Source: Somniosus microcephalus (lineage: Eukaryota). Taken from it: a DNA stretch of 64,000 nt. Under the pieces are notes generated by a model. The model did no database searches, had not been told where the DNA came from, and saw only the letters and a program-made list of their open reading frames with translations. The position numbers and the translations under genes are program-made. Positions 1 to 63,908 of this stretch are shown in pieces. The stretch spans positions 32,612,001 through 32,676,000 of the forward strand of contig CM126214.1 of NCBI GenBank assembly GCA_052327205.1, written 5' to 3'. Position 1 is the first letter of the stretch; the number at the start of each line of letters is the position of its first letter.

Positions 1-3000
1 CAGCATTGACAACAAATTCTATATCAACGCCACCAATTTCACAATCAGAATCATCTTCCCCGACAAGCATGACAGTGAAACTTGCTACAACTGAAACAGG
101 TACGAGTGAAATGATGACACCACAATTTGTAAAACACTGCAAGTAAGGTTATTGAGCTAAGAATTTGTGAAAGGTTGGATTCGAAGGCAAAATTCCCCAG
201 TTCCATGCTCCAGGCAGTTAGACATCTTGAAGGCAGCACTGCTCACAGAGAGGGCTGTAATCCTGATCGTCGAGGCCACAGTCACCTTAACCACAGATTC
301 TCACTGGGGGCTTTGGACTATACAATCTGCCCTAAAAAGATTGCAAATGGATAGAATTCTGTTCTTTCCAAAAAGGAGTTGAGGACAGCTCCATTAACCA
401 TATTCCTTTTCATTTACAGCAAGCATTACACAATTAACATCTACATTGCTCAGTACAACAGAGCCAGCAAATTCATCACCAACACAATCGTCTTCAACAG
501 CAAGCACTACTGTGACATTAAGCACAATGGAAACAAGTAAGTCAAAACAATTATACAACACATTGGGGAACAACAGTTTGCAGTTCTCTCTTTTAATTCA
601 TTGTTTGTTTTACAATGTGGAGTTGCATTAAAGAGAGCAATTTGAAATTCTGAGTCATGCATCAAGAAACTGTATTTGATACGTCCATGCACAACATGGA
701 TTGCAGAAATCACGCGCGTAACTGATACTATTCTTTCAATAGCTGCATCCACTGCAGCCACATCAACTGCTTCTGGGTCAGCAGAAATAACATCTGCACA
801 GGCAACACCTTCATCTGGCAGTACAGTGCAGCCAACAAATTCCATATCAGCAAGACCAAGCTCAGTAACACAATCATCTTCACCAGGAAGCACAACAGTG
901 ACATCAGTTACCAGTGAAACAGGTAGGATGGAAACCATTGCAACACTTTGTCGAACACTATTTGTCATGGCAAGGATTTTAGAAATTCAGAAAAATGGAT
1001 TGAAAAGTTCACAAACATAGATATTACTGTTCTTTCAAATGTAAGAAGGCACACAACACCAGGTTATAGTCCAACAGCTTTATTTGAAATCACAAGCTTT
1101 CGGAGCGCTGCTCCTTCTTCAGGTGAAGTGGAGAAATGCATAAAGGCACAGCTTATATAGTCAGAGAATCATGTCAGATGTTTACAGGTAACCTTTCCAA
1201 CTGCCATTTATCACACCTCGGCAGAGAGATAATCACAGCAGTCAAAGGTGTGAATGGTGTCCAAACAGGTCAGTCAGGGAAACATTACATCAAAGAACAA
1301 TGAGGTGGGGTCACAAGGGGTCAAATATTGCAGATGCTGGGGTCTGTATGAAAAACAAAGGCCATCCCCACGCCTCCACTACTCGCTTTCAAACAGCCGC
1401 CTAACCTCAAACAGACCATCGTTCGCAGCAAATTACCCAGCTTCCAGGAGAACAGCGACCACGACACCACACAACCCTGCCACAGCAACCTCTGCAAGAC
1501 ATGCCAGATCATCAACACAGATACCATCATCACACGTGAGGACACCACCCACCAGGTACATGGTACATACTCATGCGACTCGGCCAACGTTGTCTACCTC
1601 ATACGTTGCAGGAAAGGATGCCCCGGAGCATGGTACATCGGCGAGACCATGCAGACACTGCGACAACGGATGAACGGACACCGCGCAACAATCACCAGGC
1701 AGGAGTGTTCCCTTCCAGTCGGGGAACACTTCAGCAGTCAAGGACATTCAGCCTCCGATCTTCGGGTAAGCATTCTCCAAGGTGGCCTTCGAGACACACG
1801 ACAACGCAAAATCGTCGAGCAGAAACTGATAGCCAAGTTCCACACCCATGAGGACGGCCTCAACCGAGATCTTGGGTTCATGTCACGCTACATGTAACCC
1901 CACCTGATGCAGGGTCATCCAGACTCGAGTCGGCATTGGCTTGTTCTCTCTACACAGATGCGGCCGGACCTGCTGTGATTTCCAGCCAAAAAAAATGTTT
2001 TTTGTCTGTTTTTTTGTTTTTCATACAGACCCCAGCATCTGCAATATTTGACCCCTTGTGACCCCACCTCATTGTTCTTTGATGTAATGTTTCCCTGACT
2101 GACCTGTTTGGACACCATTCACACCTTTGACTGCTGTGATTATCTCTCTGCCGAGGTGTGATAAATGGCAGTTGGAAAGGTTACCTGTAAACATCTGACA
2201 TGATTCTCTGACTATATAAGCTATGTCTTTATGCATTTCTCCACTTCACCTGAAGAAGGAGCAGCGCTCCGAAAGCTTGTGATTTCAAATAAAGCTGTTG
2301 GACTATAACCTGGTGTTGTGTGACTTCTTACATTTGTCCACCCCAGTCCAACTCCGGCATCTCCACACCATGGCTACTATCAACAGCACAAACTGCCGGC
2401 TCAAAGTGGAGAGGATCTCCAAGAAGATCGCGCATATCGACACAGACATCAAGTTTCTACAGAGTTGCAAGAAAGCAGACAAGATCCCGAAAGGACTACA
2501 GATCACTAACCCACTCAAGTCGACCGACAACACAGACTACGCTGAGAGACTCTGCCGTCGTACCTCTCGCACACTCCTCAACCATCTCGTACACCAGCTC
2601 TACAGCAGACGCCGCAACCTCGAAACCGAGATGGAGTCCATGTTCTCAGCCTGTGCTCAGGACGCAGCAGACCAGCTACGAGACACCGCCAAACAAACAA
2701 GGCAACGGAACTACGCTACCTACATGCACACCAAGAACAGGAAGCTTGAGAAACTTGGCATCACCAGCAGCAGCAACCAAGCCTCCCCCGGTACCATGGT
2801 TGAAACCACAGGGAAATCCATCATCAACCTGTCCGACCACACCCTTCAACCAGACGAAATTGAAGTTCTCAGCCGAGGGCTCAATTTCTGCCCACCACCA
2901 AAATGGACCCCATCGGTCTCGCGGCAGACGCAGAGGAATTCATCAGGAGAATGAGGCTCCGGGAATTCTTCCACAAATCCCAAGATGTCAGCAGCGAACC

Positions 3001-6000: not shown

Positions 6001-9000
6001 AAGGTTATTGAGCTAAGAATTTGTGAAAGGTTGGATTCGAAGGCAAAATTCCCCAGTTCCATGCTCCAGGCAGTTAGACATCTTGAAGGCAGCACTGCTC
6101 AAAGAGAGGGCTGTAATCCTCATCGTTGAGGCCACAGTCACCTTAACCACAGTTTCTCACTGGGGGCTTTGGACTATACAATCTGCCCTATAAAGATTGC
6201 AAAGGGATAGAATTCCATTCTTTCCAAAAAGGAGTTGAGGACAGCTCCATTAATCATATTCCTTTTCATTTACAGCAAGCATTACACAGTTAACATCTAC
6301 ATTGCTCAGTACAACAGAGCCAGCAAATTCATCACCAACGCAATCGTCTTCAACAGCAAGCACTACTGTGACATTAAGCACAACGGAAACAAGTAAGTCA
6401 AAACAATTATACAACACATTGGGGAACAACAGTTTGCAGTTCTCTCTTTTAATTCATTGTTTGTTTTACAATGTGGAGTTGCATTAAAGAGAGCAAGTTG
6501 AAATTCGGAGTCATGCATCAAGAAACTGTGTTTGATACGTCCATGCACAACATGGATTGCAGAATTCACGCGCATAACTGATTCTATTCTTTCAATAGGT
6601 GCATCAACTGCAGCCACATCAACTACTTCTGGGTCAGCAGAAATAACATCTGCACAGGCAACACCTTCATCTGGCAGTACAGTGCAGCCAACAAATTCCA
6701 TATCAACAAGACCAAGCTCAGTAACACAATCATCTTCACCAGGAAGCACAACAGTGACATCAGTTACCAGTGAAACAGGTAGGATGGAAACCATTGCAAC
6801 ACTTTGTCGAACACTATTTGTCACGGCAAGGATTTTAGAAGTTCAGAAAAATGGATTGAAAAGTTCACAAACATAGATATTACTGTTCTTTCAAAAGGTG
6901 CATCAAGTGTAGCAGCATCAACTCCAATCACATCATCTCCAGAAAAAACTCCACATTCATCTGTGTTGCCCGTCAGTACAAAAGAGACAACAAATTCCCC
7001 ACCAACACAATCGTCTCCATTAACAAGCAGTACTGGAACATTATTCACAACTGAAACAAGTAAGACAAAGTCAATTATGAAGTACATGGTGTACAAGATG
7101 GAATTTACGGCCCAGAAAAATAAAAGCTTTTTTTCGTTCTAAAGGTGGGTCAAGTACAGTGCGATCATCTGCCATTGTGTCAACTCCATCATCTCCACTG
7201 TCAACATTGTCATCTTCTGGTACAGCAGTGAAAATAAATTCTATATCAACGCCACCAATTTCACAACCAGAATCATCTTCCCCGACAAGCACGACAGTGA
7301 CACTTGCGACAACTGAAACAGGTACGAGTGAAATGATGACACCACAATTTGTAAAACACTGCAAGTAAGGTTATTGAGATAAGAATTTGTGAAAGGTTGG
7401 ATTCGAAGGCAAAATTCCCCAGTTCCATGCTCGAGGCAGTTAGACGTCTTGAAGGCAGCACTGCTCAAAGAGAGGGCTGTAATCCTGATCGTCGAGGCCA
7501 CAGTCACCTTAACCACAGATTCTCACTGGGGGCTTTGGAATACACAATCTGCCTTATAAAGATTGCAAAGGGATAGAATTCCGTTCATTCCAAAAAGGAG
7601 TTGAGGACAGCTCCATTAACCATATTCCTTTTCATTTACAGCAAGCATTACACAATTAACATCTACATTGCTCAGTACAACAGAGCCAGCAAATTCATCA
7701 CCAACACAATCGTCTTCAACAGCAAGCACTACTGTGACATTAAGCACAATGGAAACAAGTAAGTCAAAACAATTATGCAACACATTGGGGAACAACAGAT
7801 TGCAGTTCTCTCTTTTAATTCATTGTTTGTTTTACAATGTGGAGTTGCATTAAAGAGAGCAAGTTGAAATTCTGAGTCATGCATCAGAAACTGTATTTGA
7901 TACGTCCATGCACAACATGGATTGCAGAATTCACGCGCATAACTGATACTATTCTTTCAATAGGTGCATCAACTGCAGCCACATCAACTACTTCTGGGTC
8001 AGCAGAAATAACATCTGCACAGGCAACACCTTCATCTGGCAGTACAGTGCAGCCAACAAATTCCATATCAAGAAGACCAAGCTCAGTAACACAATCACCT
8101 TCACCAGGAAGCACAACAGTGATATCAGTTACCAGTGAAAAAGGTAGGATGGAAACCATTGCAGCATTTTGTCGAACACTATTTGTCACGGCAAGGCTTT
8201 TAGAAATTCAGAAAAATGGATTGAAAAGTTCGCAAACATAGATATTATTATTGTTCTTTCAAAAGGTGCATCAAGTGTAGCAGCATCAACTCCAATCACA
8301 TCATCTCCAGAAAAAACTCCACATTCATCTGTGTTGCCCGTCAGTACAAAAGAGACAACAAATTCCCCACCAACACAATCGTCTCCATTAACAAGCAGCA
8401 CTGGAACATTATTCACAACTGAAACAAGTAAGGCAAAGTCAATTATGAAATACATGGTGTACAAGATGGAATTTACGGCCCAGAAAAATAAAAGCTTTTT
8501 TTCTTTCTAAAGGTGGGTCAAGTACAGTGCGATCATCTGCCATTGTGTCAAGTCCATCATCTCCACTGTCAACATTGTCATCTTCTGGTACAGCAGTGAC
8601 AATAAATTCTATATCAACGCCACCAATTTCACAACCAGAATCATCTTCCCCGACAAGCACTACATTGACATTTGCTACAACTGAAACAGGTACGAGTGAA
8701 ATGATGACACCACAATTTGTAAAACACTGCAAGTAAGGTTATTGAGCTGAGAATTTGTGAAAGGTTGGATTCGAAGGCAAAATTCCCCAGTTCCATGCTT
8801 CAGGCAGTTAGACGTCTTGAAGTCAGCACTGCTCACAGAGAGGGCTGTAATCCTGATCGTCAAGGCCACAGTCACCTTAACCACAGATTCTCACTGGGGG
8901 CTTTGGAATATACAATCTGCCCTATAAAGATTGCAAAGGGATAGAATTCCGTTCTTTCCAAAAAGGAGTTGAGGACAGCTCCATTAACCATATTCCTTTT

Positions 9001-24000: not shown

Positions 24001-27000
24001 CATTAACCATATTCCTTTTCATTTACAGCAAGCATTACACAGTTAACATCTACATTGCTCAGTACAACAGAGCCAGCAAATTCATCACCAACACAATCGT
24101 CTTCAACAGCAAGCACTACTGTGACATTAAGCACAACGGAAACAAGTAAGACAAAACAATTATACAACACATTGGGGAACAACAGTTTGCAGTTCTCTCT
24201 TTTAATTCATTGTTTGTTTTACAATGTGGAGTTGCATTAAAGAGAGCAAGTTGAAATTCTGAGTCATGCATCAAGAAACTTTGGCCTAGAAATTCTGTGG
24301 GCTTTGCGCCCAGTTAAGGCCCAAAGAGGGCTTCTGCACCAGTAGAGGAGGTTGCGCTGATATTGAGCTCGGCGGTAATAGCGGCGGTAGCCGGTAGCGC
24401 TGCGCCGGCACCGATGACATCATCGGTGTGCGCAGTGCCCCGTTTCTGCCCCGATGCCGGCCCGACCCCCATATTCAGTTGCCGCCGCCTCCTCTGTGGC
24501 GGCCGCCACTAACCTCCGGAGACCAGGGCCTTACTGCAGCCTTAGCGGGGCGCATAAAGGTGGAGGAGCGGCCGGCCGCTTTTTCGGCAGCCGCCTGCCC
24601 GCACCTCCATCCCCGGCCTCCTCCACCACCCCCCATTGCCGGCTGCTTTCCACGAGCCCGGCACTTCTCCGTGGTGCCAGGCTCATTTGCCGGCACAATC
24701 CAGCGGCGATCTCCCCGTTGCAGGCACCTCCACCTTAAGAGAAAGAGGAGGCCTGCAGTACCGCAGCCTGCCGCACCGCATCGGGTGGCGCAGCGGCACC
24801 TAGAGCGCAGAAATTCAGTTTCAGCGCCCCAAGCGGGGGCGGGCACACCCTGGAATAGCGCCCAGTTCCGACTTGGGGCGCAAAAACTGAATATCTGACG
24901 GTCGCAACTGACTCCGCGCCCAGCGCTAACTTTTGGGTGCTAGCCAGCTTGCGGGGCCATAGTGAATTTCTAGGCCTGTATTTGATACGTCCATGCACAA
25001 CATGGATTGCAGAATTCACGCGCATAACTGATACTATTCTTTCAATAGGTGCATCAACTGCGGCCACATCAACTACTTCTGGGTCAGCAGAAATAACATC
25101 TGCACAGGCAACATCGTCATCTGGCAGTACAGTGCAGCCAACAAATTCCATATCAACAAGACCAAGCTCAGTAACACAATCATCTTCACCAGGAAGCACA
25201 ACAGTGATATCAGTTACCAGTGAAAAAGGTAGGATGGAAACCATTGCAGCATTTTGTCGAACACTATTTGTCACGGCAAGGCTTTTAGAAATTCAGAAAA
25301 ATGGATTGAAAAATTCACAAACATAGACATTACTGTTCTTTCAAAAGGTGCATCTAGTGTAGCAGCATCAACTCCGATCACATCATCTCCAGAAAAAACT
25401 CCACATTCATCTGTGTTGCCCGTCAGTACAAAAGAGGCAACAAATTCCCCACCAACACAATCGTCTCCATTAACAAGCAGTACTGGAACATTATTCACAA
25501 CTGAAACAAGTAAGACAAAGTCAATTATGCAATACACGGTGTACAAGATGGAATTTACGGCCCAGAAAAATAAAAGCTTTTTTTCTTTCTAAAGGTGGTT
25601 CAAGTAGAGTGCAATCATCTGCCATTGTGTCAACTCCATCATCTCCACTGTCAACATTGTCATCTTCTGGTACAGCAGTGACAATAAATTATGTATCAAC
25701 GCCACCAATTTCACAACCAAAATCATCTTCCCCGACAAGCACGACAGTGACACTTGCTACAACTGAAACAGGTACGAGTGAAATGATGACACCACAATTT
25801 GTAAAACACTGCAAGTAAGGTTATTGAGCTAAGAATTTGTGAAAGGTTGGATTCGAAGGCAAAATTCCGTAGTTCCATGCTCCAGGCAGTTAGACGTCTT
25901 GAAGGCAGCACTGCTCACAGAGAGGGCTGTAATCCTGATCGTCGAGGCCACAGTCACCTTAACCACAGATTCTCACTGGGGGCTTTCGACGATACAATCT
26001 GCCGTATAAAGATTGCAAAGGGATAGAATTCCGTTCTTTCCAAAAAGGAGTTGAGGACAGCTCCATTAACCATATTCCTTTTCATTTACAGCAAGCATTA
26101 CACAGTTAACATCTACATTGCTCAGTACAACAGAGCCAGCAAATTCATCACCAACACAATCGTCTTCAACAGCAAGCACTACTGTGACATTAAGCACAAC
26201 GGAAACAAGTAAGTCAAAACAATTATACAACACATTGGGGAACAACAGTTTGCAGTTCTCTCTTTTAATTCATTGTTTGTTTTAAAATGTGGAGTTGCAT
26301 TAAAGAGAGCAAGTTGAAATTCTGAGTCATGCATCAAGAAACTGTATTTGATACATCCATGCACAACATGGATTGCAGAATTCACGCGCATAACTGATTC
26401 TATTCTTTCAATAGGTTCATCAACTGCAGCCACATCAACTACTTCTGGGTCAGCAGAAATAACATCTGCACAGGCAACACCTTCATCTGGCAGTACAGTG
26501 CAGCCAACAAATTCCATATCAACAAGACCAAGCTCAGTAACACAATCATCTTCACCAGGAAGCACAACAGTGACATCAGTTACCAGTGAAAAAGGTAGGA
26601 TGGAATCCATTGCAGCACTTTGTCGAACACTAGTTGTCACGGCAAGGCTTTTAGAAATTCAGAAAAATGGATTGAAAAGTTCCCATACTTAGATATTACT
26701 GTTCTTTCAAAAGGTGCATCAAGTGTAGCAGCATCAACTCCAATCACATCATCTCCAGAAAAAACTCCACATTCATCTGTGTTGCCCGTCAGTACAAAAG
26801 AGACAACAAATTCCCCACCAACACAATCGTCTCCATTAACAAGCAGTACTGGAACATTATTCACAACTGAAACAAGTAAGACAAAGTCAATTATGAAATA
26901 CATGGTGTACAAGATGGAATTTACGGCCCAGAAAAATAAAAGCTTTTTTTCGTTCTAAAGGTGGGTCAAGTACAGTGCGATCATCTGCCATTGTGTCAAC

Positions 27001-33000: not shown

Positions 33001-36000
33001 TCAACAGCAAGCACTACTGTGACATTAAGCACAATGGAAACAAGTAAGTCAAAACAATTATGCAACACATTGGGGAACAACAGATTGCAGTTCTCTCTTT
33101 TAATTCATTGTTTGTTTTACAATGTGGAGTTGCATTAAAGAGAGCAAGTTGAAATTCTGAGTCATGCATCAAGAAACTGTATTTGATACGTCCATGCACA
33201 ATATGGATTGCAGAATTCACGCGCATAACTGATACTATTCTTTCAATAGGTGCATCAACTGCAGCCACCTCAACTACTTCTGGGTCAGCAGAAATAACAT
33301 CTGCACAGGCAACACCTTCATCTGGCAGTACAGTGCAGCCAACAAATTCCATATCAACAAGACCAAGCTCAGTAACAGAATCACCTTCACCAGGAAGCAC
33401 AGCAGTGATATCAGTTACCAGTGAAAAAGGTAGGATGGAAACCATTGCAGCATTTTGTCGAACACTATTTGTCACGGCAAGGCTTTTAGAAATTCAGAAA
33501 AATGGATTGAAAAGTTCGCAAACATAGATATTATTACTGTTCTTTCAAAAGGTGCATCAAGTGTAGCAGCATCAACTCCAATCACATCATCTGCAGAAAA
33601 AACTCCACATTCATCTGTGTTGCCCGTCAGTACAAATGAGGCAACAAATTCCCCACCAACACAATCGTCTCCATTAACAAGCAGTACTGGAACATTATTC
33701 ACAACTGAAACAAGTCAGACAATGTCAATTATGAAATACATGGCGTACAATATGGAATTTACGGCCCAGAAAAATAAAAGCTTTTTTTCTTTCTAAAGGT
33801 GAGTCAAGTACAGTGCGATCATCTGCCATTGTGTCAACTCCATCATCTCCACTGTCAACATTGTCATCTTCTGGTACAGCAGTGACAACAAATTCTATAT
33901 CAACACCACCAATTTCACAATCAGAATCATCTTCCCCGACAAGCACGACAGTGTCACTTGCTCCAAATGAAACAGGTACGAGTGAAATGATGACACCAAA
34001 ATTTGTAAAACACTGCAATTAAGGTTATTGAGCTAAGAGTTTGTGAAAGGTTGGATTCGAAGGCAAAATTCCCCAGTTCCATGCTCCAGGCAGTTAGACG
34101 TCTTGAAGGCAGCACTGCTCACAGAGAGGGCTGAAATCCTAATCGTGGAGGGCACAGTCACCTTAACCACAGATTCTCACTGGGGGCTTTGGACTACACA
34201 ATCTGCCCTATAAAGATTGCAAAGGATAGAATTCCTTTCTTTCCAAATAGGAGTTCAGGACAGCTCCATTAACCATATTCCTTTCATTTACAGCAAGCAT
34301 TACACAATTAACATCTACATTGCTCAGTACAACAGAGCCAGCAAATTCATCACCAACACAATCGTCTTCAACAGCAAGCACTACTGTGACATTAAGCACA
34401 ATGGAAACAAGTAAGTCAAAACAATTATACAACACATTGGGGAACAACAGTTTGCAGTTCTCTCTTTTAATTCATTGTTTGTTTTACAATGTGGAGTTGC
34501 ATTAAAGAGAGCAAGTTGAAATTCTGAGTCATGCATCAAGAAACTGTATTTGATACGTCCATGCACAACATGATTGCAGAATTCACGCGCATAACTGATA
34601 CTATTCTTTCAATAGGTGCATCTACTGCAGCCACATCAACTACTTCTGGGTCAGCAGAAATAACATCTGCACAGGCAACACCTTCATCTGGCAGTACAGT
34701 GCAGCCAACAAATTCCATATCAACAAGACCAAGCTCAGTAACACAATCACCTTCACCAGGAAGCACAACAGTGATATCAGTTACCAGTGAAAAAGGTAGG
34801 ATGGAAACCATTGCAACACTTTGTCGAACACTATTTGTCACGGCAAGGCTTTTAGAAATTCAGAAAAATGGATTGAAAAGTTCACAAACATAGATATTAC
34901 TGTTCTTTCAAAAGGTGCGTCAAGTGTAGCAGCATCAACTCCAATCACATCATCTCCAGAAAAATCTCCACATTCATCTGTGTTGCCCGTCAGTACAAAA
35001 GAGACAACAAATTCCCCACCAACACAATCGTCTCCATTAACAAGCAGTACTGGAACATTATTCACAACTGAAACAATTAAGACAAAGTCAATTATGAAAT
35101 ACATGGTGTACAAGATGGAATTTACGGCCCAGAAAAATAAAAGCTTTTTTTCTTTCTAAAGGTGGGTCAAGTACAGTGCGATCATCTGCCATCGTGTCAA
35201 CGCCATCATCTCCACTGTCAACATTGTCATCTTCTGGTACAGCAGTGAAAATAAATTATATATCAACGCCACCAATTTCACAACCAGAATCATCTTCCCC
35301 GACAAGCACGACAGTGACACTTGCTACAACTGAAACAGGTACGAGTGAAATGATGACACCACAATTTGTAAAACACTGCAAGTAAGGTTATTGAGCTAAG
35401 AATTTGTGAAAGGTTGGATTGGAAGGCAAAATTCCCCAGTTCCATGCTCCAGGCAGTTAGACGTCTTGAAGGCAGCACTGCTCACAGAGAGGGCTGTAAT
35501 GCTGATCGTCGAGGCCACAGTCACCTTAACCACAGATTCCCACTGGGGGCTTTGGACTGTACAATCTGCCCTAAAAAGATTGCAAAGGGATAGAATTCTG
35601 TTCTTTCCAAAAAGGAGTTGAGGACAGCTCCATTAACCATATTCCTTTTCATTTACAGCAAGCATTACACAGTTAACATCTACATTGCTCAGTACAACAG
35701 AGCCAGCAAATTCATCACCAACACAATCGTCTTCAACAGCAAGCACTACTGTGACATTAAGCACAACGGAAACAAGTAAGTCAAAACAATTAAACAACAC
35801 ATTGTGGAACTACAGTTTGCAGTTCTCTCTTTTAATTCATTGTTTGTTTTACAATGTGGAGTTGCATTAAAGAGAGCAAGTTGAAATTCTGCGTCATGCA
35901 TCAGGAAACTGTATTTGATACGTCCATGCACAACATGGATTGCAGAATCCACGCGCATAACTGATACTATTCTTTCAACAGGTGCATCAACTGCAGCCAC

Positions 36001-54000: not shown

Positions 54001-57000
54001 ATTCTCACTGGGGGCTTTGGACTATACAATCTGCCCTATAAAGATAGCAAAGGGATAGAATTCCGTTCTTTCCAAAAAGGAGTTGAGGACAGCTCCATTA
54101 ACCATCTTCCTTTTCATTTACAGCAAGCATTACACAATTAACATCTACATTGCTCAGTACAACAGAGCCAGCCAATTCATCACCAACACAATCGTCTTCA
54201 ACAGCAAGCACTACTGTGACATTAAGCACAACGGAAACAAGTAAGTCAAAACAATTATCCAACACATTGTGGAACAACAGTTTGCAGTTCTCTCTTTTAA
54301 TTCATTGTTTGTTTTACAATGTGGAGTTGCATTAAAGAGAGCAAGTTGAAATTCTGAGTCATGCATCAAGAAACTGTATTTGATACATCCATGCACAACA
54401 TGGATTGCAGAATTCACGTGCATAACTGATACTATTCTTTCAATAGGTGCATCAACTGCGGCCACATCAACTACTTCTGGGTCAGCAGAAATAACATCTG
54501 CACAGGCAACATCTTCATCTGGCAGTACAGTGCAGCCAACAAATTCCATATCAACAAGACCAAGCTCAGTAACACAATCATCTTCACCAGGAAGCACAAC
54601 AGTGATATCAGTTACCAATGAAAAAGGTAGGATGGAAACCATTGCAGCATTTTGTCGAACACTATTTGTCACGGCAAGGCTTTTAGAAATTCAGAAAAAT
54701 GGATTGAAAAATTCACAAACATAGACATTACTGTTCTTTCAAAAGGTGCATCAAGTGTAGCAGCATCAACTCCAATCACATCATCTCCAGAAAAAACTCC
54801 ACATTCGTCAGTGTTACCCGTCAGTACAAGAGAGACAACAAATTCCCCACCAACACAATCGTCTCCATTAACAAGCAGTACTGGAACATTATTCACAACT
54901 GAAACAAGTAAGACAAAGTCAATTATGAAATACATGGGGCTGGATTTTCAGTTGCTTGCGCCAGCAGTTAGCGCCTTAAGAGAAGTGAATTTCGGGCGCT
55001 ATGCGTGTAGCGCCCGGGTGCAGCGCAGTTTGCGCCTCGCCCCAAATTAAGTTGGCCGTTAGCGCCGGCGCAAAGTTTAGCGCCCGCCCGGATGCGCGCG
55101 CAGAAAATGACATCACATCCTCGTGCAACGCCCTTTGGCCGCCCCGATTCCAAACTCCAGTCGGACCGCCCCATTGTGCAGCTGGCGGCCGGAGCGTTTG
55201 AAAAAAGGAACGCAACACAACCAGCGCGGGCCCCGGGGGGTGCAAATTAAAGGGGACGTACCCTCCAGTATAAAGCGCAGCCATTTTGCAGCAAACACTC
55301 TTGTGCAACGCATTTCTGGACACACAACAAGGAGGATAGCTAACTGGTTTCAAGCAGCAACAGCTCAGGTATTTTTGGACTCAGGCCAGAGCGCTGCAAG
55401 TGGCCTTTTGGAAATTTGACTGTTTGCCAGGATTTGATGGGGGTTGCATGGGGTGCCAACGCGGAGCTGCAGCGCCATGTCCGTAGGGCTCGCAGACGCA
55501 TTGTGAGAGGGGCAGCCCTGGCTAGAGGCAGAGGCGGCTACAGGCGTCGGCCACGTAGGCCTTACCCAGTCAGGCTATACGCCAGCAGCGCTCCTACCTC
55601 AACATGACTGACGCGCGATGTGTTAGAAGGCTCCGATTCCGAAAGGAGGTGGTTGCAGAGATCTGCCACCTGCTTCGCAGAGATCTGCGTCCAAAGCTCA
55701 GGTGCAGGACGTCTCTGTCGGTGGAAGTGAAGGTGACGGTGGCATTGAACTTCTATGCCACCGGCTCCTTCCAATCCGCTGCTGGGGACATAGCAAACAT
55801 CTCCCAGTACGGCGCGCATCGCTGCATCCGCCAGGTGACCGAAGCACTGTTCAGAAGGAGAAGCCAATTCATCTCCTTCCCCATGGCCCTGCAGAGCCAG
55901 CATCAGCGCACCTTGGGATTTGCAAGACTCGGGGACTTCCCCTTGGTGCAGGGCGCTATTGACTGTACGCATGTGGCTTTGCGGGCCCCTCTGGAGCATG
56001 GCGAGCAGTATCGCAACAGGAAGGGCTACCATTCTCTGAATGTGCAGCTGGTGTGTGACCACAAGCAGCGCATCATGGCTGTCAATGCCAGCTTCCCAGG
56101 CAGCAGCCACGATGCGTTTATCCTGCGCCAGAGTACTGTGCATGACATGTTCGAGGCACAGCCTCCCCCAAGAGGATGGCTACTCGGGGACAAAGGCTAT
56201 CCTTTGTGTACCTGGCTCATGACCCCGCTCCGCGCGCCCAGGACCGCTGCTGAAGAGGCCTACAACGAGAGCCATCAAACCACCCGCAACATCATCGAGC
56301 AAACTATTGGGGTCCTAAAGCAGCGGTTCCGCTGCCTTGATCACTCCGGAGGAGCTCTGCAGTATTCGCCGGACCGGGTCTCCCAATTTGTGGTAGTTTG
56401 CTGCATGCTACACAACCTGGCTATCCGCAGGACCCAGGCACTGCCACCTGACGTTGGAGCAGTACCTCAGGAGGAGGAGCAGGAGGAGCAGGAGGAGGAG
56501 GAGGAGGAGCAGGAGTACGTTCCCAGGAGGGAGCGACCAGGGCCAAGGGCCGCGCGACGCCACCTTATTACACGTTACTTCTAAGCCCCCTGTCAGGGAA
56601 TGCCTTGTGGCCATGAGGGAAGATGAATGCAGCCGCTCCGCAAGCCCTCAGCCGGCGATGCCACCAAACACTAACAAGAACAACCATGGAGACTGTATGA
56701 ATAAAGATAATTATTTATTACACAAAAATGAAAACCCCTTCCCACATGAATCCCCAAAAACAATCAACGGGCCCCACAAAAAGCCCAACAAACGACTCAC
56801 TCCCACAAACTGGGGAGGAGTAACTCCACATTTGTACAAACCTGGCCTCAACCTCGGCCTTAACACAAAAAATAAGCCCATGAACCAAACAACCATGGGC
56901 AAAAGAAAGATGGCCACCGCCATATAAAACGAAAGCTGGCCACACCCTCTACTGAGTGGCCCGCGAGGGCGAGACCTTGTCCAGCCTTTTGCCTCCCCTG

Positions 57001-60000
57001 CCCGGCCTGCTGCTCCTTCGCAAGCTCTGCCCAGTGGCTGCTGCGAGGCTGGGGGAAGGCGCCTGAGGCTCAGATGTCCTTCCGCCAGATGCCGCTGGGG
57101 GGCGGCCTACACGGCCTTTGGGCCTCGAGGGGCCGGCTGCTGAGTGGCGCACCTGAGCCTGGCCAACATCAGCTCCAGCCGCTTGCCCTTGACGCCCCAG
57201 TGGGGGAGTGGCAGCGACAGATGGCGCAATGTGGGCAAGCTGGCGTCTGGGATGCGCTGCCTGGTGCTGTGGCGCGCTGGCACTCGGCCGGGCCCGCACT
57301 GCAGGATCCGCAACAATCAGCCGAGGGGCGGCTCGCTGGGATGCTCCAGCGCGGCGGCTGCCCTGGCGATGCCTGCCTGAGACAGCGCGTGTGGCAGCAG
57401 TGAGTGCCCCTGTTGTCCTGGTGTGCGCCCGCATCACACCCGCCAGGGTCTTGACGGCATCAGTGAGCATGCGGCCACTCGCGGCAGTTGATGCCCCGAA
57501 CTCGCGCACACTGGTCGCCAGCGACTCGATGGCCTCAGGCATGCGCCCCACCACGCTCATGAGCTCCGTGTGGCGCCGGTCCGAATCCTCGCCCATCTTG
57601 TCCAGCTTCCGCGCCTCCTCCATGGTGAAGGTGTCCGGACTGGAGTCGGGACTCTCCCGCTGGGGAGCAGGGGACCGAACTAGGGGAACCTTGCCACGTT
57701 GGTGGCGGCGAGTGTCCCGATCAACTGCACTCCCCTCTGATCCTTCCCCCCTTGGCCGCGGCCCATGCGCAGGGCTCCTGGGTGGCTGGACGCCACTGGT
57801 CCCAGAAGCTGCAATCCCCTGCGACAGTTGGTCCAGGCACTCGTCCAGTGAGGACGTGTCAATCATTTCGTCCTCTCCTGCGGGACCTGAGTGTTCCCCT
57901 GATGGTCCGGCTTGCTCTTGCTCCTCCTTCTCCTCCTCCTCCTCCTCCTCCTGCTCGGAGGGGCTGTCACTGGCAGCTTCAGGGTCCTGGTCATCACCAG
58001 CTGAAAGCAGGAATGCACAAGAGTAGCTTCAGAGTGAGGAGACGGCGTCAGCGAGGGAGTTAGGACTGGTGGCATTCAGCGCATTGGTGGGACAGTGGCA
58101 AAGGAGGTAGCTCGGATGTGCAAGTGCGACGCGAGAGGGCCAAAAGGCGAGATCCTTACCATTGCCGGGCAGTGGAGGGTCGGCTACTCCACACGCTGTG
58201 GGCACGATCAGCCGGGCTCCCATGAGCCCACACACGCGCTCCTCCAGGCGAGTGAGCTTCTGCAGCTTGGCGCGGCCTCCCCTGGTCCTGGCACGGGCCT
58301 GGCGATTATAGGCAACTTTAGCCTGCAAGAGAAAGGACGGGCTGTAAGTACGCAGTGTAGCGCTGATGTAGTGTGCACTGCCTCCCATGGTGGAATAGCT
58401 TGGCCAGAGTGTAGCCCTGATGTACTGTGCACTGCCTCCCATGGTGGAATAGCTTGGCCAGAGTGTAGCCCTGATGTACTGTGCACTGCCTCCCATGGTG
58501 GAATAGCTTGGCCAGAGTGTAGAGTGCAGAATGGGCAATTGATGCTCATGACTGTCCCAAAGCTGCTGGCTGAGGGCTGGCCATTAGGACTTTCAGCTCC
58601 CTTTGCCCATCATGTCAGGTGTACATGCAAGAATGAGGAGGAGACTGGAAAGGGTACTCACCCTGACAATCCTGGTCAGGTCGTTGTATTTTTTACGACA
58701 TTGTTTGTGGGTCCTGGGGGCATCGCCGGTGAACGTCACCCTGTTGGCGATCTGCTTCCAGGCTCTGGTGTATTCTTGGTGGTTCGGATTCCTCCCAGTC
58801 TCTGGGAACAAGATCCTGCGCCTCTTCTCCAGAGCTGTCACCAATATTTCCAGATCACCCTCTGAGAAGCACAGGGCACGCTCACGGGCCTTCTCTGGCG
58901 TTGCCATGACTCCCTGGGGCTGAGCAGCAGTGTTGAGGCCTATTTGCAAAGCTGCAGTGTGCAGGGCGTGGCAGCAGACCAAATCGTCCCTTCCCCCTTT
59001 AAGAGCTGGTCGGCGCCACGGGGTCTGCTGTCAATCAAAAAATGACCGCACCCGCGCTGCGCCCCGCCTCGGCGCTATCCCTCTGCACCGCCGGCTTAGC
59101 GCCTAAAGATAGTAGTGGAACGCCTCTTTTAGCGCTCCACCAACCTCTTAGGGCGAAGCCACTGAATTTCCGGCAAGGGGGCGCAACTTAGGGGCGGGCG
59201 CTAACTTCGGGCGGGCGCTAACGTTAGCGCCCCAAAACTGGCTATACTGAATTTCTAGGCCATGGTGTACAATATGGAATTTACGGCCCAGAAAAATAAA
59301 AGCTTTTTTGCTTTCTAAAGGTGGGTCAAGTACAGTGCGATCATCTGCCATTGTGTCAACTGCATCATCTCCACTGTCAACATTGTCATCTTCTGGTACA
59401 GCAGTGACAACAAATTCTATATTAACGCCACCAATTTCACAATCAGCATCATCTTCCCCGACAAGCATGACAGTGACACTTGCTACAACTGAAACAGGTA
59501 CGAGTGAAATGATGACACCACAATTTGTAAAACACTGCAAGTAAGGTTATTGAGCTAAGAATTTGTGAAAGGTTAGATTCGAAGGCAAAATTCCCCAGTT
59601 CCATGCTCCAGGCAGTTAGACGTCTTGAAGGCAGCACTGCTCACAGAGAGGGCTGTAATCCTGATCGTCGAGGCCACAGTCACCTTAACCACAGATTCTC
59701 ACTGGGGGCTTTGGAATATACAATCTGCCCTATAAAGATTGCAAGGGGATAGAATAAAGTTCTTTCCAAAAAGGAGTTGAGGACAGGTCCATTAACCATA
59801 TTCCTTTTCATTTACAGCAAGCATTACACAATTAACATCTACATTGCTCAGTACAACAGAGCCAGCAAATTCATCACCAACACAATCGTCTTCAACAGCA
59901 AGCACTACTGTGACATTAAGCACAACGGAAACAAGTAAGTCAAAACAATTATACAACACATTGGGGAACAACAGTTTGCAGTTCTCTCTTTTAATACATT

Positions 60001-63000
60001 GTTTGTTTTACAATGTGGAGTTGCATTAAAGGGAGCAAGTTGAAATTCTGAGTCATGCATCAAGAAACTGTATTTGATAAGTCCATGCACAACATGGATT
60101 GCAGAATTCATGCGCATAACTGATGCGATTCTTTCAATAGGTGCATCAACTGCAGCCACATCAACTACTTCTGGGTCAGCAGAAATAACATCTGCACAGG
60201 CAACACCTTCATCTGGCAGTACAGTGCAGCCAACAAATTCCATATCAACAAGACCAAGCTCAGTAACACAATCATCTTCACCAGGAAGCACAACAGTGAC
60301 ATCAGTTACCAGTGAAAAAGGTAGGATGGAAACCATTGCAGCACTTTGTCGAACACTATTTGTCACGGCAATGCTTTTAGAAATTCAGAAAAATGGATTG
60401 AAAAGTTCACAAACATAGATATTACTGTTCTTTCAAAAGGTGCATCAAGTGTAGCAGCATCAACTCCAATCACATCATCTCCAGAAAAAACTCCACATTC
60501 ATCAGTGTTACCCGTCAGTACAAGAGAGACTACAAATTCCCCACCAACACAATCGTCTCCATTAACAAGCAGTACTGGAACATTATTCACAACTGAAACA
60601 AGTAAGACAAAGTCAATTATGCAATACATGGGGTACAATATGGAATTTACGGCCCAGAAAAATAAAAGCTTTTGTTCTTTCTAAAGGTGGGTCAAGTACA
60701 GTGCGATCATCTGCCATTGTGTCAAGTCCATCATCTCCACTGTCAACATTGTCATCTTCTGGTACAGCAGTGACAACAAATTCTATATCAACGCCACCAA
60801 TTTCACAATCAGACTCATCTTCCCCAACAAGCACGACAGTGACACTTGCTACAACTGAAACAGGTACGAGTGAAATGATGACACCACAATTTGTAAAACA
60901 CTGCAAGTAAGGTTATTGAGCAAAGAATTTGTGAAAGGTTGGATTCGAAGGCAAAATTCCCCAGTTCCATGCTCCAGGCAGTTAGACGTCTTGAAGGCAG
61001 CGCTGCTCACAGAGAGGGCTGTAATCCTGATCGTCGAGGCCACAGTCACCTTAACCACAGATTCTCACTGGGTGCTTTGGACAATACAATCTGCCCTATA
61101 AAGATTGCAAAGGGATAGAATTCCATTCTTTCCAAAAAGGAGTTGAGGACAGCTCCATTAACCATATTCCTTTTCATTTACAGCAAGCATTACACAGTTA
61201 ACATCTACATTGCTCAGTACAACAGAGCCAGCAAATTCATCACCAACACAATCGTCTTCAACAGCAAGCACTACTGTGACATTAAGCACAATGGAAACAA
61301 GTAAGTCAAAACAATTATACAACACATTGGGGAACAACAGTTTGCAGTTCTCTCTTTTAATTCATTGTTTGTTTTACAATGTGGAGTTGCATTAAAGAGA
61401 GCAAGTTGAAATTGTGAGTCATGCATCAAGAAACTGTTCCTTGAACAGAGGCCTGACCTGTCCCCATCCACCACCACCCTCCTCCGCCTGGCTGAACTTG
61501 TTCTCACATTGAACAACTTCTCCTTCAACTCCACTCATTTCCTCCAAATCAAAGGTGTTGCTATGGGTACCCGCATGGGTCCTAGCTATGCCTGCCTTTT
61601 CGTGGGATATGTGGAATACTCTTTGTTCCAATCCTACTCGGGTCCCCTCCCTCACCTCTTTTTCCGATACGTTGATGACTGTATCGGCGCCGTTTCCTGC
61701 TCTCACCCTGAACTAGACAATTTAATTCACTTTGCCTCCAATTTCCACCCTTCCCTCACCTTCACATGGTCCATCTCTGACTCTTCCCTTCCCTTCCTCG
61801 ACTTCTCCGTCTCCATCTCTGGGGATAGGTTATCAACCAATATTCACTACAAGCCCACTGACTCCCACAGCTATCTGGACTATTCTTCCTCCCACCCCGC
61901 CTCCTGTATTGACTCTATTCCATTCTCCCAGTTTCTCCATCTCCGCCGTATCTGCTCCGATGATGCCACCTTCCAGACCAGTGCTTCCGACATGTCTTCC
62001 TTTTTCCTCAACCGAGGATTCCCCTTTACCGTGGTTGACACGGCCCTCGACCGTGTCAGTTCTATCTCCCGCACTTCTGCCCTCACCCCTGCCCCTCCCT
62101 CCCGGAACCACGATAGGGTTCCCCTTGTCCTCACCTTTCACCCCACCAGCCTCCACATTCAACGGATCATCCTCCGCCATTTCCGCTACCTCCAAAGCAG
62201 TCCCACCACCAAACGCATCTTCCCCTCCCCTCCCCTTTCAGCATTCCGTAGGGACTGCTCCCTCCAAGACACTCTAGTCCACTCCTCTATCACCCCCAAC
62301 AGCCCTTCCCTTTCGCCTGGCACCTTCCTGTGCAAGCGCAGGAGATGTAACACCTGCCCCTATACCTCCCCCCTTCCCACTGTCCAGGGCCCCAAACACC
62401 CCTTCCAGGTGAAACAGTGATTTACTTGTACTTCTTGCAATCTAGTATACTGTATTCGCTGCTCACGATGCGGTCTCTTCTACATTAGGGAGACCAAACG
62501 CAGATTGGGTGACTGCTTTGCGGAACACCTCCATTCAGTCCGTAAGGGTGACCCCGAGCTCCCGGTCGCCTGTCATTTTAATTCACCGTTCCATTCCCAC
62601 TTGGACCTCACCGTCCTTGGCCTCTTGCATTGTTCCACGGAAGCTCAACGTAAACTCGAGGAACAGCACCTCATCTTCCGATTAGGCACGTTGCAGCCTT
62701 CCGGACTCAATATCGAGTTCAACAATTTCAGATCATAACCTCGGCCCCTATTACATTTTTACTTATATTTTTTTTCCCACCCCTTTGTTTTGGGTTTCCC
62801 CCCCCCCCTTTCCTTTTGTTTTTCTCTCTCTCCCACACGGCAGCTGTCTCTCATTCTGCCAGTACACTTCACACCTAATCTGAGCCATCTTTTGTCTCCA
62901 CTTGTCCTATTACCATCTCATCTGGTTTTGAATATCTCTTAATGTCTCTTTACTTCTTTTGTTCTATCGCAGCCCTGCCTTCGATCTATTTCATTTCCTT

Positions 63001-63908
63001 TCCAGTTTTGAAAAAGGGTTCACCCGAAACGTCGACTCTAATTTCTCTCCACGGATGTTGCCTGGCCTGCTGAGTTTTTCCAGCATTTTCTCTTGTTATA
63101 ACAAGAAATTGTGTTTGTTACGTCCATGCACAATCTGGATTGCAGAATTCATGCACATAACTGATTCTATTCTTTCAATAGGTGCATCCACTGCAGCCAC
63201 ATCAACTATTTCTGGGTCAGCAGAAATAACATCTGAACAGGCAACACCTTCATCTGGCAGTACAGTGCAGCCAACAAATTCCATATCAACAAGACCAAGC
63301 TCAGTAACACAATCATCTTCACCAGGAAGCACAACAGTGACATCAGTTACCAGTGAAACAGGTAGGATGGAATCCATTGCAGCACTTTGTCGAACACTAT
63401 TTGTCACGGCAAGGCTTTTAGAAATTCAGAAAAATGGATCGATAGGTTCACAAACATAGATATTACTGTTCTTTCAAAAGGTGCGTCAAGTATAGCAGCA
63501 TCAACTCCAATCACATCATCTCCAGAAACAACTCCACAATCATCAGTGTCACCCGTCAGTACAAGAGAGACAACAAATTCCCCACCAACACAATCGTCTC
63601 CACTAACAAGCAGTACTGGAACATTATTCACAACTGAAACAAGTAAGTCAAAGTCAATTATGCAATACATGGGGTACAATATGGAATTTACCGCCCAGAA
63701 GTAAGTATGAATCCTTTTTTTCTTTCTAAAGGTGGGTTAAATACAGTGCGATCATCTGCCATTGAGTCATCTCCATCATCTCCACTGTCAACATTGTCAT
63801 CTTCTGGTACAGCAGTGACAACAAATTCTATATCAACGCCACCAATTTCACAATCAGAATCATCTTCCCCGACCAGCACGAGAGTGACACTTGCTACAAC
63901 TGAAACAG
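1..63908 (+). CDS. Interior of a giant multi-exon mucin-like (PTS-domain) gene: 37 four-exon cassettes plus a partial exon (1-99), about 7,800 aa; start and stop not in the window
   Basis: Each unit has four S/T/P-rich open segments bounded by polypyrimidine-AG acceptors and GT donors. All have lengths divisible by 3 and phase 1 at both ends. In-frame stops occur only beyond the donors, and all TE insertions are intronic. No terminal domains (VWD, SEA, TM, cystine knot) are visible, so the gene cannot be named. Confidence 0.8.
1040..1359 (-). repeat. Inverted copy of the PLE pseudo-LTR
   Basis: Reverse complement of ~2012-2331 and ~5159-5478. The ORF track shows the same MVSKQVSQG peptide on opposite strands. 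Confidence 0.92.
1090..1126 (-). ncRNA. Minimal hammerhead ribozyme in the inverted pLTR
   Basis: Exact reverse complement of 2246-2282. Confidence 0.75.
1360..1897 (+). pseudogene. Duplicated 3' fragment of the PLE ORF (linker + GIY-YIG) in the upstream partial-tandem copy
   Basis: Near-identical to 4507-5044. Confidence 0.88.
2246..2282 (+). ncRNA. Minimal hammerhead ribozyme in PLE pLTR
   Basis: tcac-CTGAAGA-a-GGAGC-agc-GCTCC-GAAA-gc-TT-gtga: core boxes, stem II hairpin, stem I tcac/gtga and palindromic AAGCTT stem III, as in PLE minimal hammerheads. Confidence 0.8.
2370..5044 (+). pseudogene. PLE polyprotein (reverse transcriptase + GIY-YIG endonuclease), disrupted
   Basis: Motifs IKPADKGGA, DVSALYTSI, GTAMGTKFAPQYA, RYIDD and VVY...YIGET...RMNGH. 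A 1-nt frameshift lies near 2890 (GLNFCP/TTKMDP) and a premature TGA at 4343-4345; the frame then continues to TAA 5042-5044. Confidence 0.9.
5393..5429 (+). ncRNA. Minimal hammerhead ribozyme in the 3' pLTR
   Basis: Identical to 2246-2282. Confidence 0.8.
6276..6392 (+). CDS. Exon A of a representative unit (117 nt, phase 1-1): SITQLTSTLLSTTEPANSSPTQSSSTASTTVTLSTTET
   Basis: Acceptor ccttttcatttacag| and consensus donor aa|gtaagt; conserved across units. Confidence 0.75.
6599..6778 (+). CDS. Exon B of a representative unit (180 nt, phase 1-1): ASTAATSTTSGSAEITSAQATPSSGSTVQPTNSISTRPSSVTQSSSPGSTTVTSVTSET
   Basis: Acceptor tattctttcaatag| with a ctgat branch-like motif upstream; donor ag|gtagga. 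S/T-rich composition stops at these borders. Confidence 0.8.
6898..7059 (+). CDS. Exon C of a representative unit (162 nt, phase 1-1): ASSVAASTPITSSPEKTPHSSVLPVSTKETTNSPPTQSSPLTSSTGTLFTTET
   Basis: Acceptor tgttctttcaaaag| and donor aa|gtaaga. Confidence 0.8.
7145..7321 (+). CDS. Exon D of a representative unit (177 nt, phase 1-1): GSSTVRSSAIVSTPSSPLSTLSSSGTAVKINSISTPPISQPESSSPTSTTVTLATTET
   Basis: Acceptor tttttttcgttctaaag| and donor ag|gtacga, at the position homologous to the other three exon ends (gaaaca-R|gta). Confidence 0.75.
24283..24976. mobile_element. Non-autonomous Harbinger-type MITE, copy 1 (694 bp)
   Basis: 13-bp TIR ggcctagaaattc...gaatttctaggcc and 3-bp TSD ttt/tgt (empty site aaac-tgt-attt). 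Unit length rises by 697. GC-rich. TIR equals the right end of the autonomous element at 59249-59261. Confidence 0.9.
37270..37963. mobile_element. MITE copy 2 (spread by array duplication)
   Basis: Same site and sequence as copy 1, offset 12987. Confidence 0.9.
46156..46849. mobile_element. MITE copy 3 (spread by array duplication)
   Basis: Same site and nearly the same sequence as copy 2, offset 8886. Confidence 0.9.
50950..51652. mobile_element. MITE copy 4 (703 bp, more diverged)
   Basis: Same intron position and the same ttt/tgt flanks; 9 nt longer, with multiple substitutions. Confidence 0.9.
55437..56584 (+). CDS. Harbinger DDE transposase (HARBI1-like, DDE_Tnp_4); apparent 1-nt frameshift near 55580, intact 326-aa ORF from 55604
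   Basis: Motifs ALNFYATGSFQ, GAIDCTHV, NRKGYHSLNVQLVCD, PGSSHDA, LLGDKGYP and IIEQTIGVLKQRFRCL. Restoring one base joins the upstream RRPYP segment to YRQQRSYLNM. AATAAA at 56700-56705. Confidence 0.88.
56949..58907 (-). CDS. Harbinger Myb/SANT-like DNA-binding protein, 3 exons (58907-58662, 58322-58160, 58000-56949), ~486 aa
   Basis: N-terminal FSEGDLEILV...RAWKQIA...RTHKQCRKKYNDL trihelix motif. Donors gtgagt and gtaagg, acceptors ttgcag and tttcag. Exon phases join in frame through an acidic tract into ORF 57866-56949. Minus-strand AATAAA at ~56714-56719. Confidence 0.82.
58354..58522. repeat. 54-bp minisatellite, ~3.1 copies, in intron 1 of the Myb-like gene
   Basis: agtgtagccctgatgtactgtgcactgcctcccatggtggaatagcttggccag repeated at 58354, 58408 and 58462. 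Confidence 0.92.
61438..62738 (+). pseudogene. Truncated PLE RT + GIY-YIG ORF with internal stop
   Basis: Motifs GVAMGTRMGPSYA, FRYVDD, YKPTD, CKRRRCNTC and LVYCIRC...YIRETKRRL. TGA at 62418-62420. Confidence 0.88.
61438..63101 (+). mobile_element. 5'-truncated Penelope-like element of a second family
   Basis: 11-bp TSD caagaaactgt (61427-61437) / caagaaattgt (63102-63112). Partial RT, GIY-YIG, a pyrimidine-rich 3' UTR and a degenerate hammerhead-like motif near 63004-63038. Confidence 0.9.

Follow-up and report, generated by a model that had tools for sequence, protein, structure and literature searches.

A four-exon cassette repeated over 185 kb likely encodes the PTS region of a MUC16-type transmembrane mucin in Somniosus microcephalus

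The exon array and its cassette

The window analysed here is a stretch of 64,000 nucleotides from Somniosus microcephalus (contig CM126214.1, 32,612,001-32,676,000). It holds the 3' third of a tandem array of short exons that extends from 32,490,951 to 32,675,908 (185 kb). Features within the window, numbered from its first base, are the following.

1..63908, plus strand: 149 PTS exons, all phase-1/phase-1, that form the 3' third of the array and encode 7,865 aa
1040..5519, plus strand: retroelement near the end of an intron 2 whose acceptor is retained (RVT_1, E 4e-10)
6276..6392, plus strand: exon A of the reference unit, 117 nt; joint 6392-6599, GT..AG, in runs X1 and X2
6599..6778, plus strand: exon B of the reference unit, 180 nt; the B/C joint omits 119 nt, GT..AG
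6898..7059, plus strand: exon C of the reference unit, 162 nt; it matches exon A at 78% across 102 nt
7145..7321, plus strand: exon D of the reference unit, 177 nt; it matches exon B at 66% across 180 nt
24284..24975, strand unassigned: 0.7-kb element with terminal inverted repeats, in an intron 1
35077..35078, plus strand: inactivated C-exon donor (TT), with a second such lesion at 43963-43964
54938..59260: DNA transposon with a DDE transposase, in an intron 3 (DDE_Tnp_4, E 1.7e-40)
61438..63101, plus strand: retroelement-like fragment in an intron 1, class assigned by eye, with no Pfam match
63732..63908, plus strand: final D exon of the array, followed in phase after 1.27 kb, beyond the window, by the unique last PTS exon

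In the reference unit, exons of 117, 180, 162 and 177 nt alternate with introns of 206, 119, 85 and 320 nt, exactly as a sequence-only reading of the window had divided it. The GT-AG ends it described are found in all introns of this unit, but two C exons elsewhere in the window have TT donors. The main period is indeed 1366, yet the units are less uniform than was supposed, as seven introns carry insertions of 0.7-4.5 kb and four D exons measure 168 nt, 9 nt short. The window contains the 37 units counted before (37 A, 37 B, 37 C and 38 D exons, the first D truncated by the left edge). All 149 exons, against ~148 proposed, are open and 3n long; their sum of 23,595 nt corresponds to 7,865 aa and agrees with the earlier minimum of ~7,800 aa of PTS sequence. 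The peptide had been described as Cys-free and S/T/P-rich, which holds for the whole array, with S+T+P at 62% and no Cys in 270 translated intact exons.

The array had been thought to run off both edges of the window. It does so on the left, where 141 further slots reach 121 kb beyond the edge, whereas on the right the repeat stops ~260 bases past the window at a cut-off A stub. The exon count of the window thus understates the whole array, which comprises 290 exon slots, 274 of them intact, with 43,593 nt encoding 14,531 aa. In thirteen upstream units the exons number three, one being an A/B hybrid that keeps the frame. Candidate copies across the genome (76 for B and 77 for D) equal the local counts (B plus hybrid exons, and D, respectively), and the array is therefore confined to a single locus. 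The assembly is continuous across the array, which contains no N. Tandem Repeats Finder missed the array because its period limit is 500 bases, and no Pfam family matches the PTS exons.

The retroelement at 1040..5519 is presumably Penelope-like, judging from the architecture of its duplicated 3' part, and we take the DDE transposon at 54938..59260 to be of Harbinger type by its layout. The 0.7-kb element has further copies at 37271-37962, 46157-46848 and 50951-51651 and has multiplied along with the array. Part of its terminal repeat is common to the DDE transposon, of which it is, on that ground, probably a non-autonomous partner. The transposon itself encloses a 54-bp tandem repeat of 3.1 copies (58354-58522). 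An avoidance of exons by insertions, suggested by 0 of 4 events in the window, was rejected, as 6 of 18 large events in the whole array, by hand count, lie in exons (P 0.19).

Downstream exons, paralogs and shark relatives

Features of the surrounding locus are given below in contig coordinates.

32,398,919-32,398,997: farther candidate signal-peptide first exon, 92 kb before the array, single-copy, with a phase-1 GTAAGA donor
32,436,595-32,436,673: nearer candidate signal-peptide first exon, 54 kb before the array, likewise single-copy with a phase-1 GTAAGA donor
32,677,174-32,677,374, plus strand: unique last PTS exon, phase-compatible with the array
32,679,301-32,778,695, plus strand: 21 exons of seven three-exon SEA domains
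32,784,484-32,784,596, plus strand: transmembrane exon
from 32,789,481, plus strand: tail exon of 33 codons
33,124,458-33,129,640: single 5.3-kb Thr/Pro repeat exon of a third paralog, between its last two SEA domains
33,240,884-33,384,977: paralog with 64 PTS exons, 64/64 open by donor-motif count
33,630,257-33,837,888: paralog with 178 PTS exons, 178/178 open by donor-motif count

The sequence-only reading had called for annotation of the flanks, and phase-1-compatible SEA, transmembrane and tail exons do follow the array. The SEA exons begin 3.4 kb past the last D exon, with identical strand and phase. All 24 downstream exons have AG acceptors and all 23 internal donors are GT; when joined, they encode 1,036 aa free of stops, with one membrane helix and a short tail and no EGF-like block between, as judged by translation and hydropathy. 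An assembly gap of 500 N lies in the SEA 7 intron, upstream of the transmembrane exon. The third exons of SEA 1 and SEA 4, the two tested, have MUC16 as their best PDB match (E 1.5e-6 and 4.2e-6), the PDB matches of SEA exons being 8vm1, 8gkl and 7sa9. The first exon of SEA 1 gave nothing significant in the PDB search, and single SEA exons reach Pfam SEA at or just under the cut-off. All three matches in a protein search with a SEA exon were shark mucin-16-like proteins, at 44-46% identity over ~1,000 aa. SEA 5 and SEA 7 read G-S-V-K-V at the position of the autoproteolysis motif, which is given for membrane mucins as G/S[V/I]VV (PMC13643018, available in part). The intron between exons 2 and 3 of SEA 1 contains an LTR-retrotransposon-like insertion with long open frames.

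At the upstream end, the nearer candidate first exon agrees with the first exons of the paralogs in length and in the way it starts. The nucleotide likeness between the candidates and those exons did not exceed that of shuffles (score 28 vs. a maximum of 41), and no low-copy internal exon stood out in the upstream region. A purine/pyrimidine-skewed minisatellite of 13 kb lies between the nearer candidate and the array (32,452,400-32,465,400); it has several open frames and is probably non-coding.

A cluster of genes on one strand, from 32.4 to 33.98 Mb, opens with this gene and contains at least five genes that have a transmembrane exon and one partial copy. Both array paralogs consist of a signal-peptide exon (5 or 16 kb upstream), an exon array and the SEA-transmembrane-tail series, and neither the 64-exon nor the 178-exon array showed a clear sequence match to the four-exon cassette. 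The single PTS exon of the third paralog represents a mammalian-style layout beside the exon-array genes. Another paralog, at 32,895,000-32,988,000, has degraded-looking SEA units, and no PTS array was found there. The partial copy (33,476,000-33,549,000) has two signal-like exons and a terminal SEA, and no transmembrane exon was found in it.

A MYO1F exon, 98% identical to shark MYO1F, lies at 35.53 Mb and a PLAC-domain exon at 35.29 Mb, so that both genes share the strand of the cluster and lie 1.3-1.6 Mb beyond it. A protein-database search with the PLAC exon yielded no gene name. MUC16, ADAMTS10 and MYO1F are reported at one human locus (PMC8220141, available in part), and in chicken MYO1F and ADAMTS10 (PMC5703906, available in part) as well as Muc16 (PMC1552070, available in part) are on chromosome 28. 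In Chiloscyllium, the mucin-16-like and MYO1F proteins have source contigs of equal length. From sequence and position, the genes of the cluster are best read as MUC16 co-orthologs in a cartilaginous fish.

Masking of the array by annotation pipelines had also been thought probable. The three annotated shark mucin-16-like proteins, from a search limited to 99-2000 aa, indeed have no PTS region and otherwise the same SEA-transmembrane-tail series, but a catshark gene model does contain cassettes. Among the three HMMER matches to exon B, this model (Scyliorhinus torazame GCB71906.1) is a true relative, in which B-C-D-A repeats (47-60% identity) lead into the start of a SEA domain. It is a hypothetical protein of 645 aa with ~2.5 cassettes and a partial SEA, and a gene prediction rather than a transcript. 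The cassette is therefore old within sharks and, in this independent prediction, linked to SEA. The other two matches had no local match above 45% identity, and a word-index protein search with exon B returned no match.

Constraint, splicing and alternative readings

Substitutions in the window are about as dense in exons (123/636, 0.193) as in introns (147/730, 0.201; P 0.76), and dN/dS is ~0.8 there and ~0.84 over 277 of the 290 slots. None of the 123 exon variants makes a stop, vs. 6.1 expected (P 0.002), and indels that are not multiples of three number 0 in exons vs. 9 in introns (P 0.004). The whole array, for which split, cut or unpaired slots were left out (277/290 used), has 0 stop-making variants vs. 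15.8 expected and 0 such indels in exons vs. 27 in introns. Splice-core positions carry 4-6 variants vs. 14.8 expected from other intron sites (P 0.001-0.009). All these P values are approximate because variants were counted as distinct changes and not as independent events. Changes that stop or shift the reading frame are removed, while the amino-acid sequence is almost free to drift.

Contigs of runs X1 (organism A) and X2 (organism B), which come from two studies of relatives ~3% different and are presumed to be RNA, have all four introns removed at the predicted GT-AG sites. The junctions named in advance from the sequence (6392/6599, 6778/6898, 7059/7145 and 7321/7642) were thus all recovered. 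Between the X1 contig and the reference unit there are 22 differences, which identifies the source organisms as relatives. One X1 contig of 640 nt represents a whole spliced unit closing on itself, the form that a tandem mRNA would be expected to take in an assembly graph. Run X5 has two of the joints, on the last unit, and run X12 has none, its contigs retaining introns. Raw reads of the presumed-RNA runs X14/X15 (0/2 on the unit) are no measure of expression. An X1 contig over 6751-6925 retains intron 2 at a depth of 15, compared with 45-69 in spliced contigs; this 119-nt intron would shift the frame, and the contig may represent pre-mRNA, DNA or a truncated form. Joints that skip an exon were absent from those listed for the X1 and X2 contigs, a type of data that loses rare forms, and no contig leading from a D exon into the last PTS exon or SEA was among the matches listed, where repeats dominate.

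Two interpretations were rejected. A non-coding satellite is contradicted by the constraint on stops, frameshifts and splice sites and by the spliced contigs. Coding on the opposite strand was considered since the minus strand of the spliced unit has one open frame, but the GT-AG sites and the SEA exons belong to the plus strand. The window is instead a spliced PTS exon array, as the junctions seen in relatives and the phase-compatible SEA, transmembrane and tail exons indicate, and likely part of a functional MUC16-type transmembrane mucin with ~300 exons and at most ~15,600 residues predicted.

Damage is found in 16 of the 290 slots: seven are split or cut by insertions or deletions, and nine have altered splice sites (three acceptors and six donors, one of them GC). 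Every exon is 3n long and in phase 1-1, and therefore a damaged exon could be skipped without a frameshift; this is probably how damaged exons are tolerated. Fourteen of the damaged slots, and all six insertions that hit exons, lie upstream of the window in the 5' two-thirds of the array. Such a distribution would suit a working mRNA drawn mainly from the clean 3' array, with the decaying 5' part skipped in blocks and a protein far below 15,600 aa. We consider this rather unlikely, because the upstream part is purged as well: taken alone, it has 1 scored stop variant vs. 11.5 expected, scored against the majority reference of that part and reduced to 0 by direct translation, and 0 exonic indels outside multiples of three vs. 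19 in introns.

The number of units could also be inflated or collapsed by the assembly, in which case the exon count would be wrong and the gene real. Near-identical blocks within the array (1,300 of 1,300 bases in one case, 99.8% over 8 kb in another) lend this some credence, but the blocks carry private variants, such as the TT donor present in two of three copies of a repeated block, and N is absent, so that a seriously mistaken count seems quite unlikely.

It is very unlikely that the array is a separate secreted PTS-only gene, or that its transcript ends ahead of the SEA exons. The cut-off last A exon and the X1 contig with intron 2, which would end the frame, could be taken in that sense, but the SEA exons are reached 3.4 kb on through a unique PTS exon in the same strand and phase, the catshark model unites cassette and SEA, and two paralogs have the same order of signal exon, exon array and SEA series. 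That the locus is a recent pseudogene in Somniosus microcephalus, or a satellite merely resembling exons, is highly improbable: satellite-like higher-order repeats (8 kb at 99.8%), a dN/dS near 0.8 and the damaged exons are in keeping with it, but 277 exons are free of stops and frameshifting small indels, the C-terminal part is intact, splicing occurs in relatives and the cassette is kept in catshark at ~50% amino-acid identity.

Comparison with known mucins and growth of the array

The preferred reading of a functional transmembrane mucin departs from the sequence-only reading in its reference point, which had been the gel-forming mucins; by its SEA domains and helix the gene is of MUC16 type. 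A gel-forming mucin (MUC2/5AC/5B), a secreted type with VWD, CysD and cystine-knot domains, was rejected since the array is Cys-free, SEA domains and a membrane helix come after it, and no low-copy internal exon stood out upstream. A Muc13-type mucin, which has a single SEA domain and, in mammals, EGF-like domains, was rejected since there are seven SEA domains here and the EGF-like block is absent. Features of the MUC16 type seen here are a large N-terminal PTS region (the 274 intact exons), several tandem SEA domains (seven) and a conserved neighbourhood (the MYO1F exon and the PLAC exon, the human locus having MYO1F and ADAMTS10). MUC16 (CA125) of mammals and chicken likewise combines a PTS region, several tandem SEA domains, one membrane helix and a short tail. 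It differs in that the shark PTS region is made of 290 short exons in a homogenised, expanding array, that there are seven SEA domains of three exons each, and that the gene belongs to a set of at least five tandem paralogs with a transmembrane exon. Human mucin repeats are described as lying in a large exon, with the MUC16 repeat nearly invariant in length and degenerate, and in the same 2026 pangenome preprint all mucins are said to have one large repeat exon (PMC13345508, available in part).

Multi-exon designs exist in other systems. Chicken Muc13 is also a transmembrane SEA mucin with one PTS repeat per exon, but it has at least 12 exons of 20 aa, one SEA and a different orthology group; its authors proposed in 2006 an ancestral multi-exon design with length control by splicing (PMC1552070, available in part). 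Xenopus tropicalis Otogl/MucXS offers a vertebrate example of a multi-exonic central mucin domain (PMC5789918, available in part). In Schistosoma mansoni SmPoMuc, an exon and its flanking introns form conserved tandem units of ~1 kb, although this is an unrelated parasite protein with one 27-bp exon and at most ~20 units (PMC2576457, available in part). A shark MUC16 or an exon array this large was not found in the literature searched, from which subscription papers were largely missing, and the available part of PMC4948705 contains nothing on the Somniosus array gene. The multi-exon mucin design is already known; the novelty lies in its scale here, in the cassette of four exons, in the identification with MUC16 and in the mixed make-up of the cluster.

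Comparison within the cassette suggests how it arose. Exon C resembles A (78%) and D resembles B (66%), and introns 1 and 2 as well as introns 2 and 4 have common sequence remnants; the cassette therefore probably grew by doubling, with one ancestral exon-plus-intron unit giving two and then four. The 1366-bp cassette would then have been expanded and homogenised in the manner of a satellite by unequal crossing-over, as the 8-kb block at 99.8% identity suggests. Selection would act on frame, splicing and composition and hardly on single residues, and a broken exon may be skipped at no cost in frame.

The predicted product is a type I membrane mucin with a signal peptide, a filament of ~14,500 aa, seven SEA domains, a helix and a tail. 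The putative signal peptide would lead the protein into the secretory path, where the S/T-rich array, by its composition, could be densely O-glycosylated into a long bottle-brush filament of the apical glycocalyx anchored by the helix. Glycosylated mucins measure ~0.25 nm per residue, at which the filament could extend ~3.6 micrometres. Shedding may occur at the G-S-V motifs of SEA 5 and SEA 7, where cleavage is predicted.

If this reading holds, 185 kb of apparent satellite becomes coding sequence, and in the three annotated mucin-16-like proteins of sharks described above the greater part of the length is probably missing. Titin has 363 exons; a gene of ~300 exons approaches it and would rank among the most exon-rich vertebrate genes. 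The locus puts MUC16 and its neighbour MYO1F in cartilaginous fish, as an expanded cluster with exon-array and single-giant-exon regions side by side. Both ideas raised by chicken Muc13, an ancestral multi-exon PTS region and splicing that sets mucin length within one individual, can now be tested directly, and the 16 damaged, frame-neutral exons provide markers of spliceosome behaviour at hundreds of nearly identical splice sites. Tentatively, ancestral MUC16 might have been such a cluster as in this shark, with satellite-like arrays of 64 to 290 interchangeable exons, block skipping that tunes glycocalyx length over micrometres, and mammalian giant PTS exons as a later replacement, a scenario that we consider possible but doubtful.

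Additional clusters of SEA exons were noted at 87.9-88.3, 93.8 and 113.4-114.5 Mb of C14 and at 1.31 Mb of C41. At two of these loci the SEA exons lie in open frames of 892 aa and 709 aa, and the clusters are possibly other mucins or membrane proteases.
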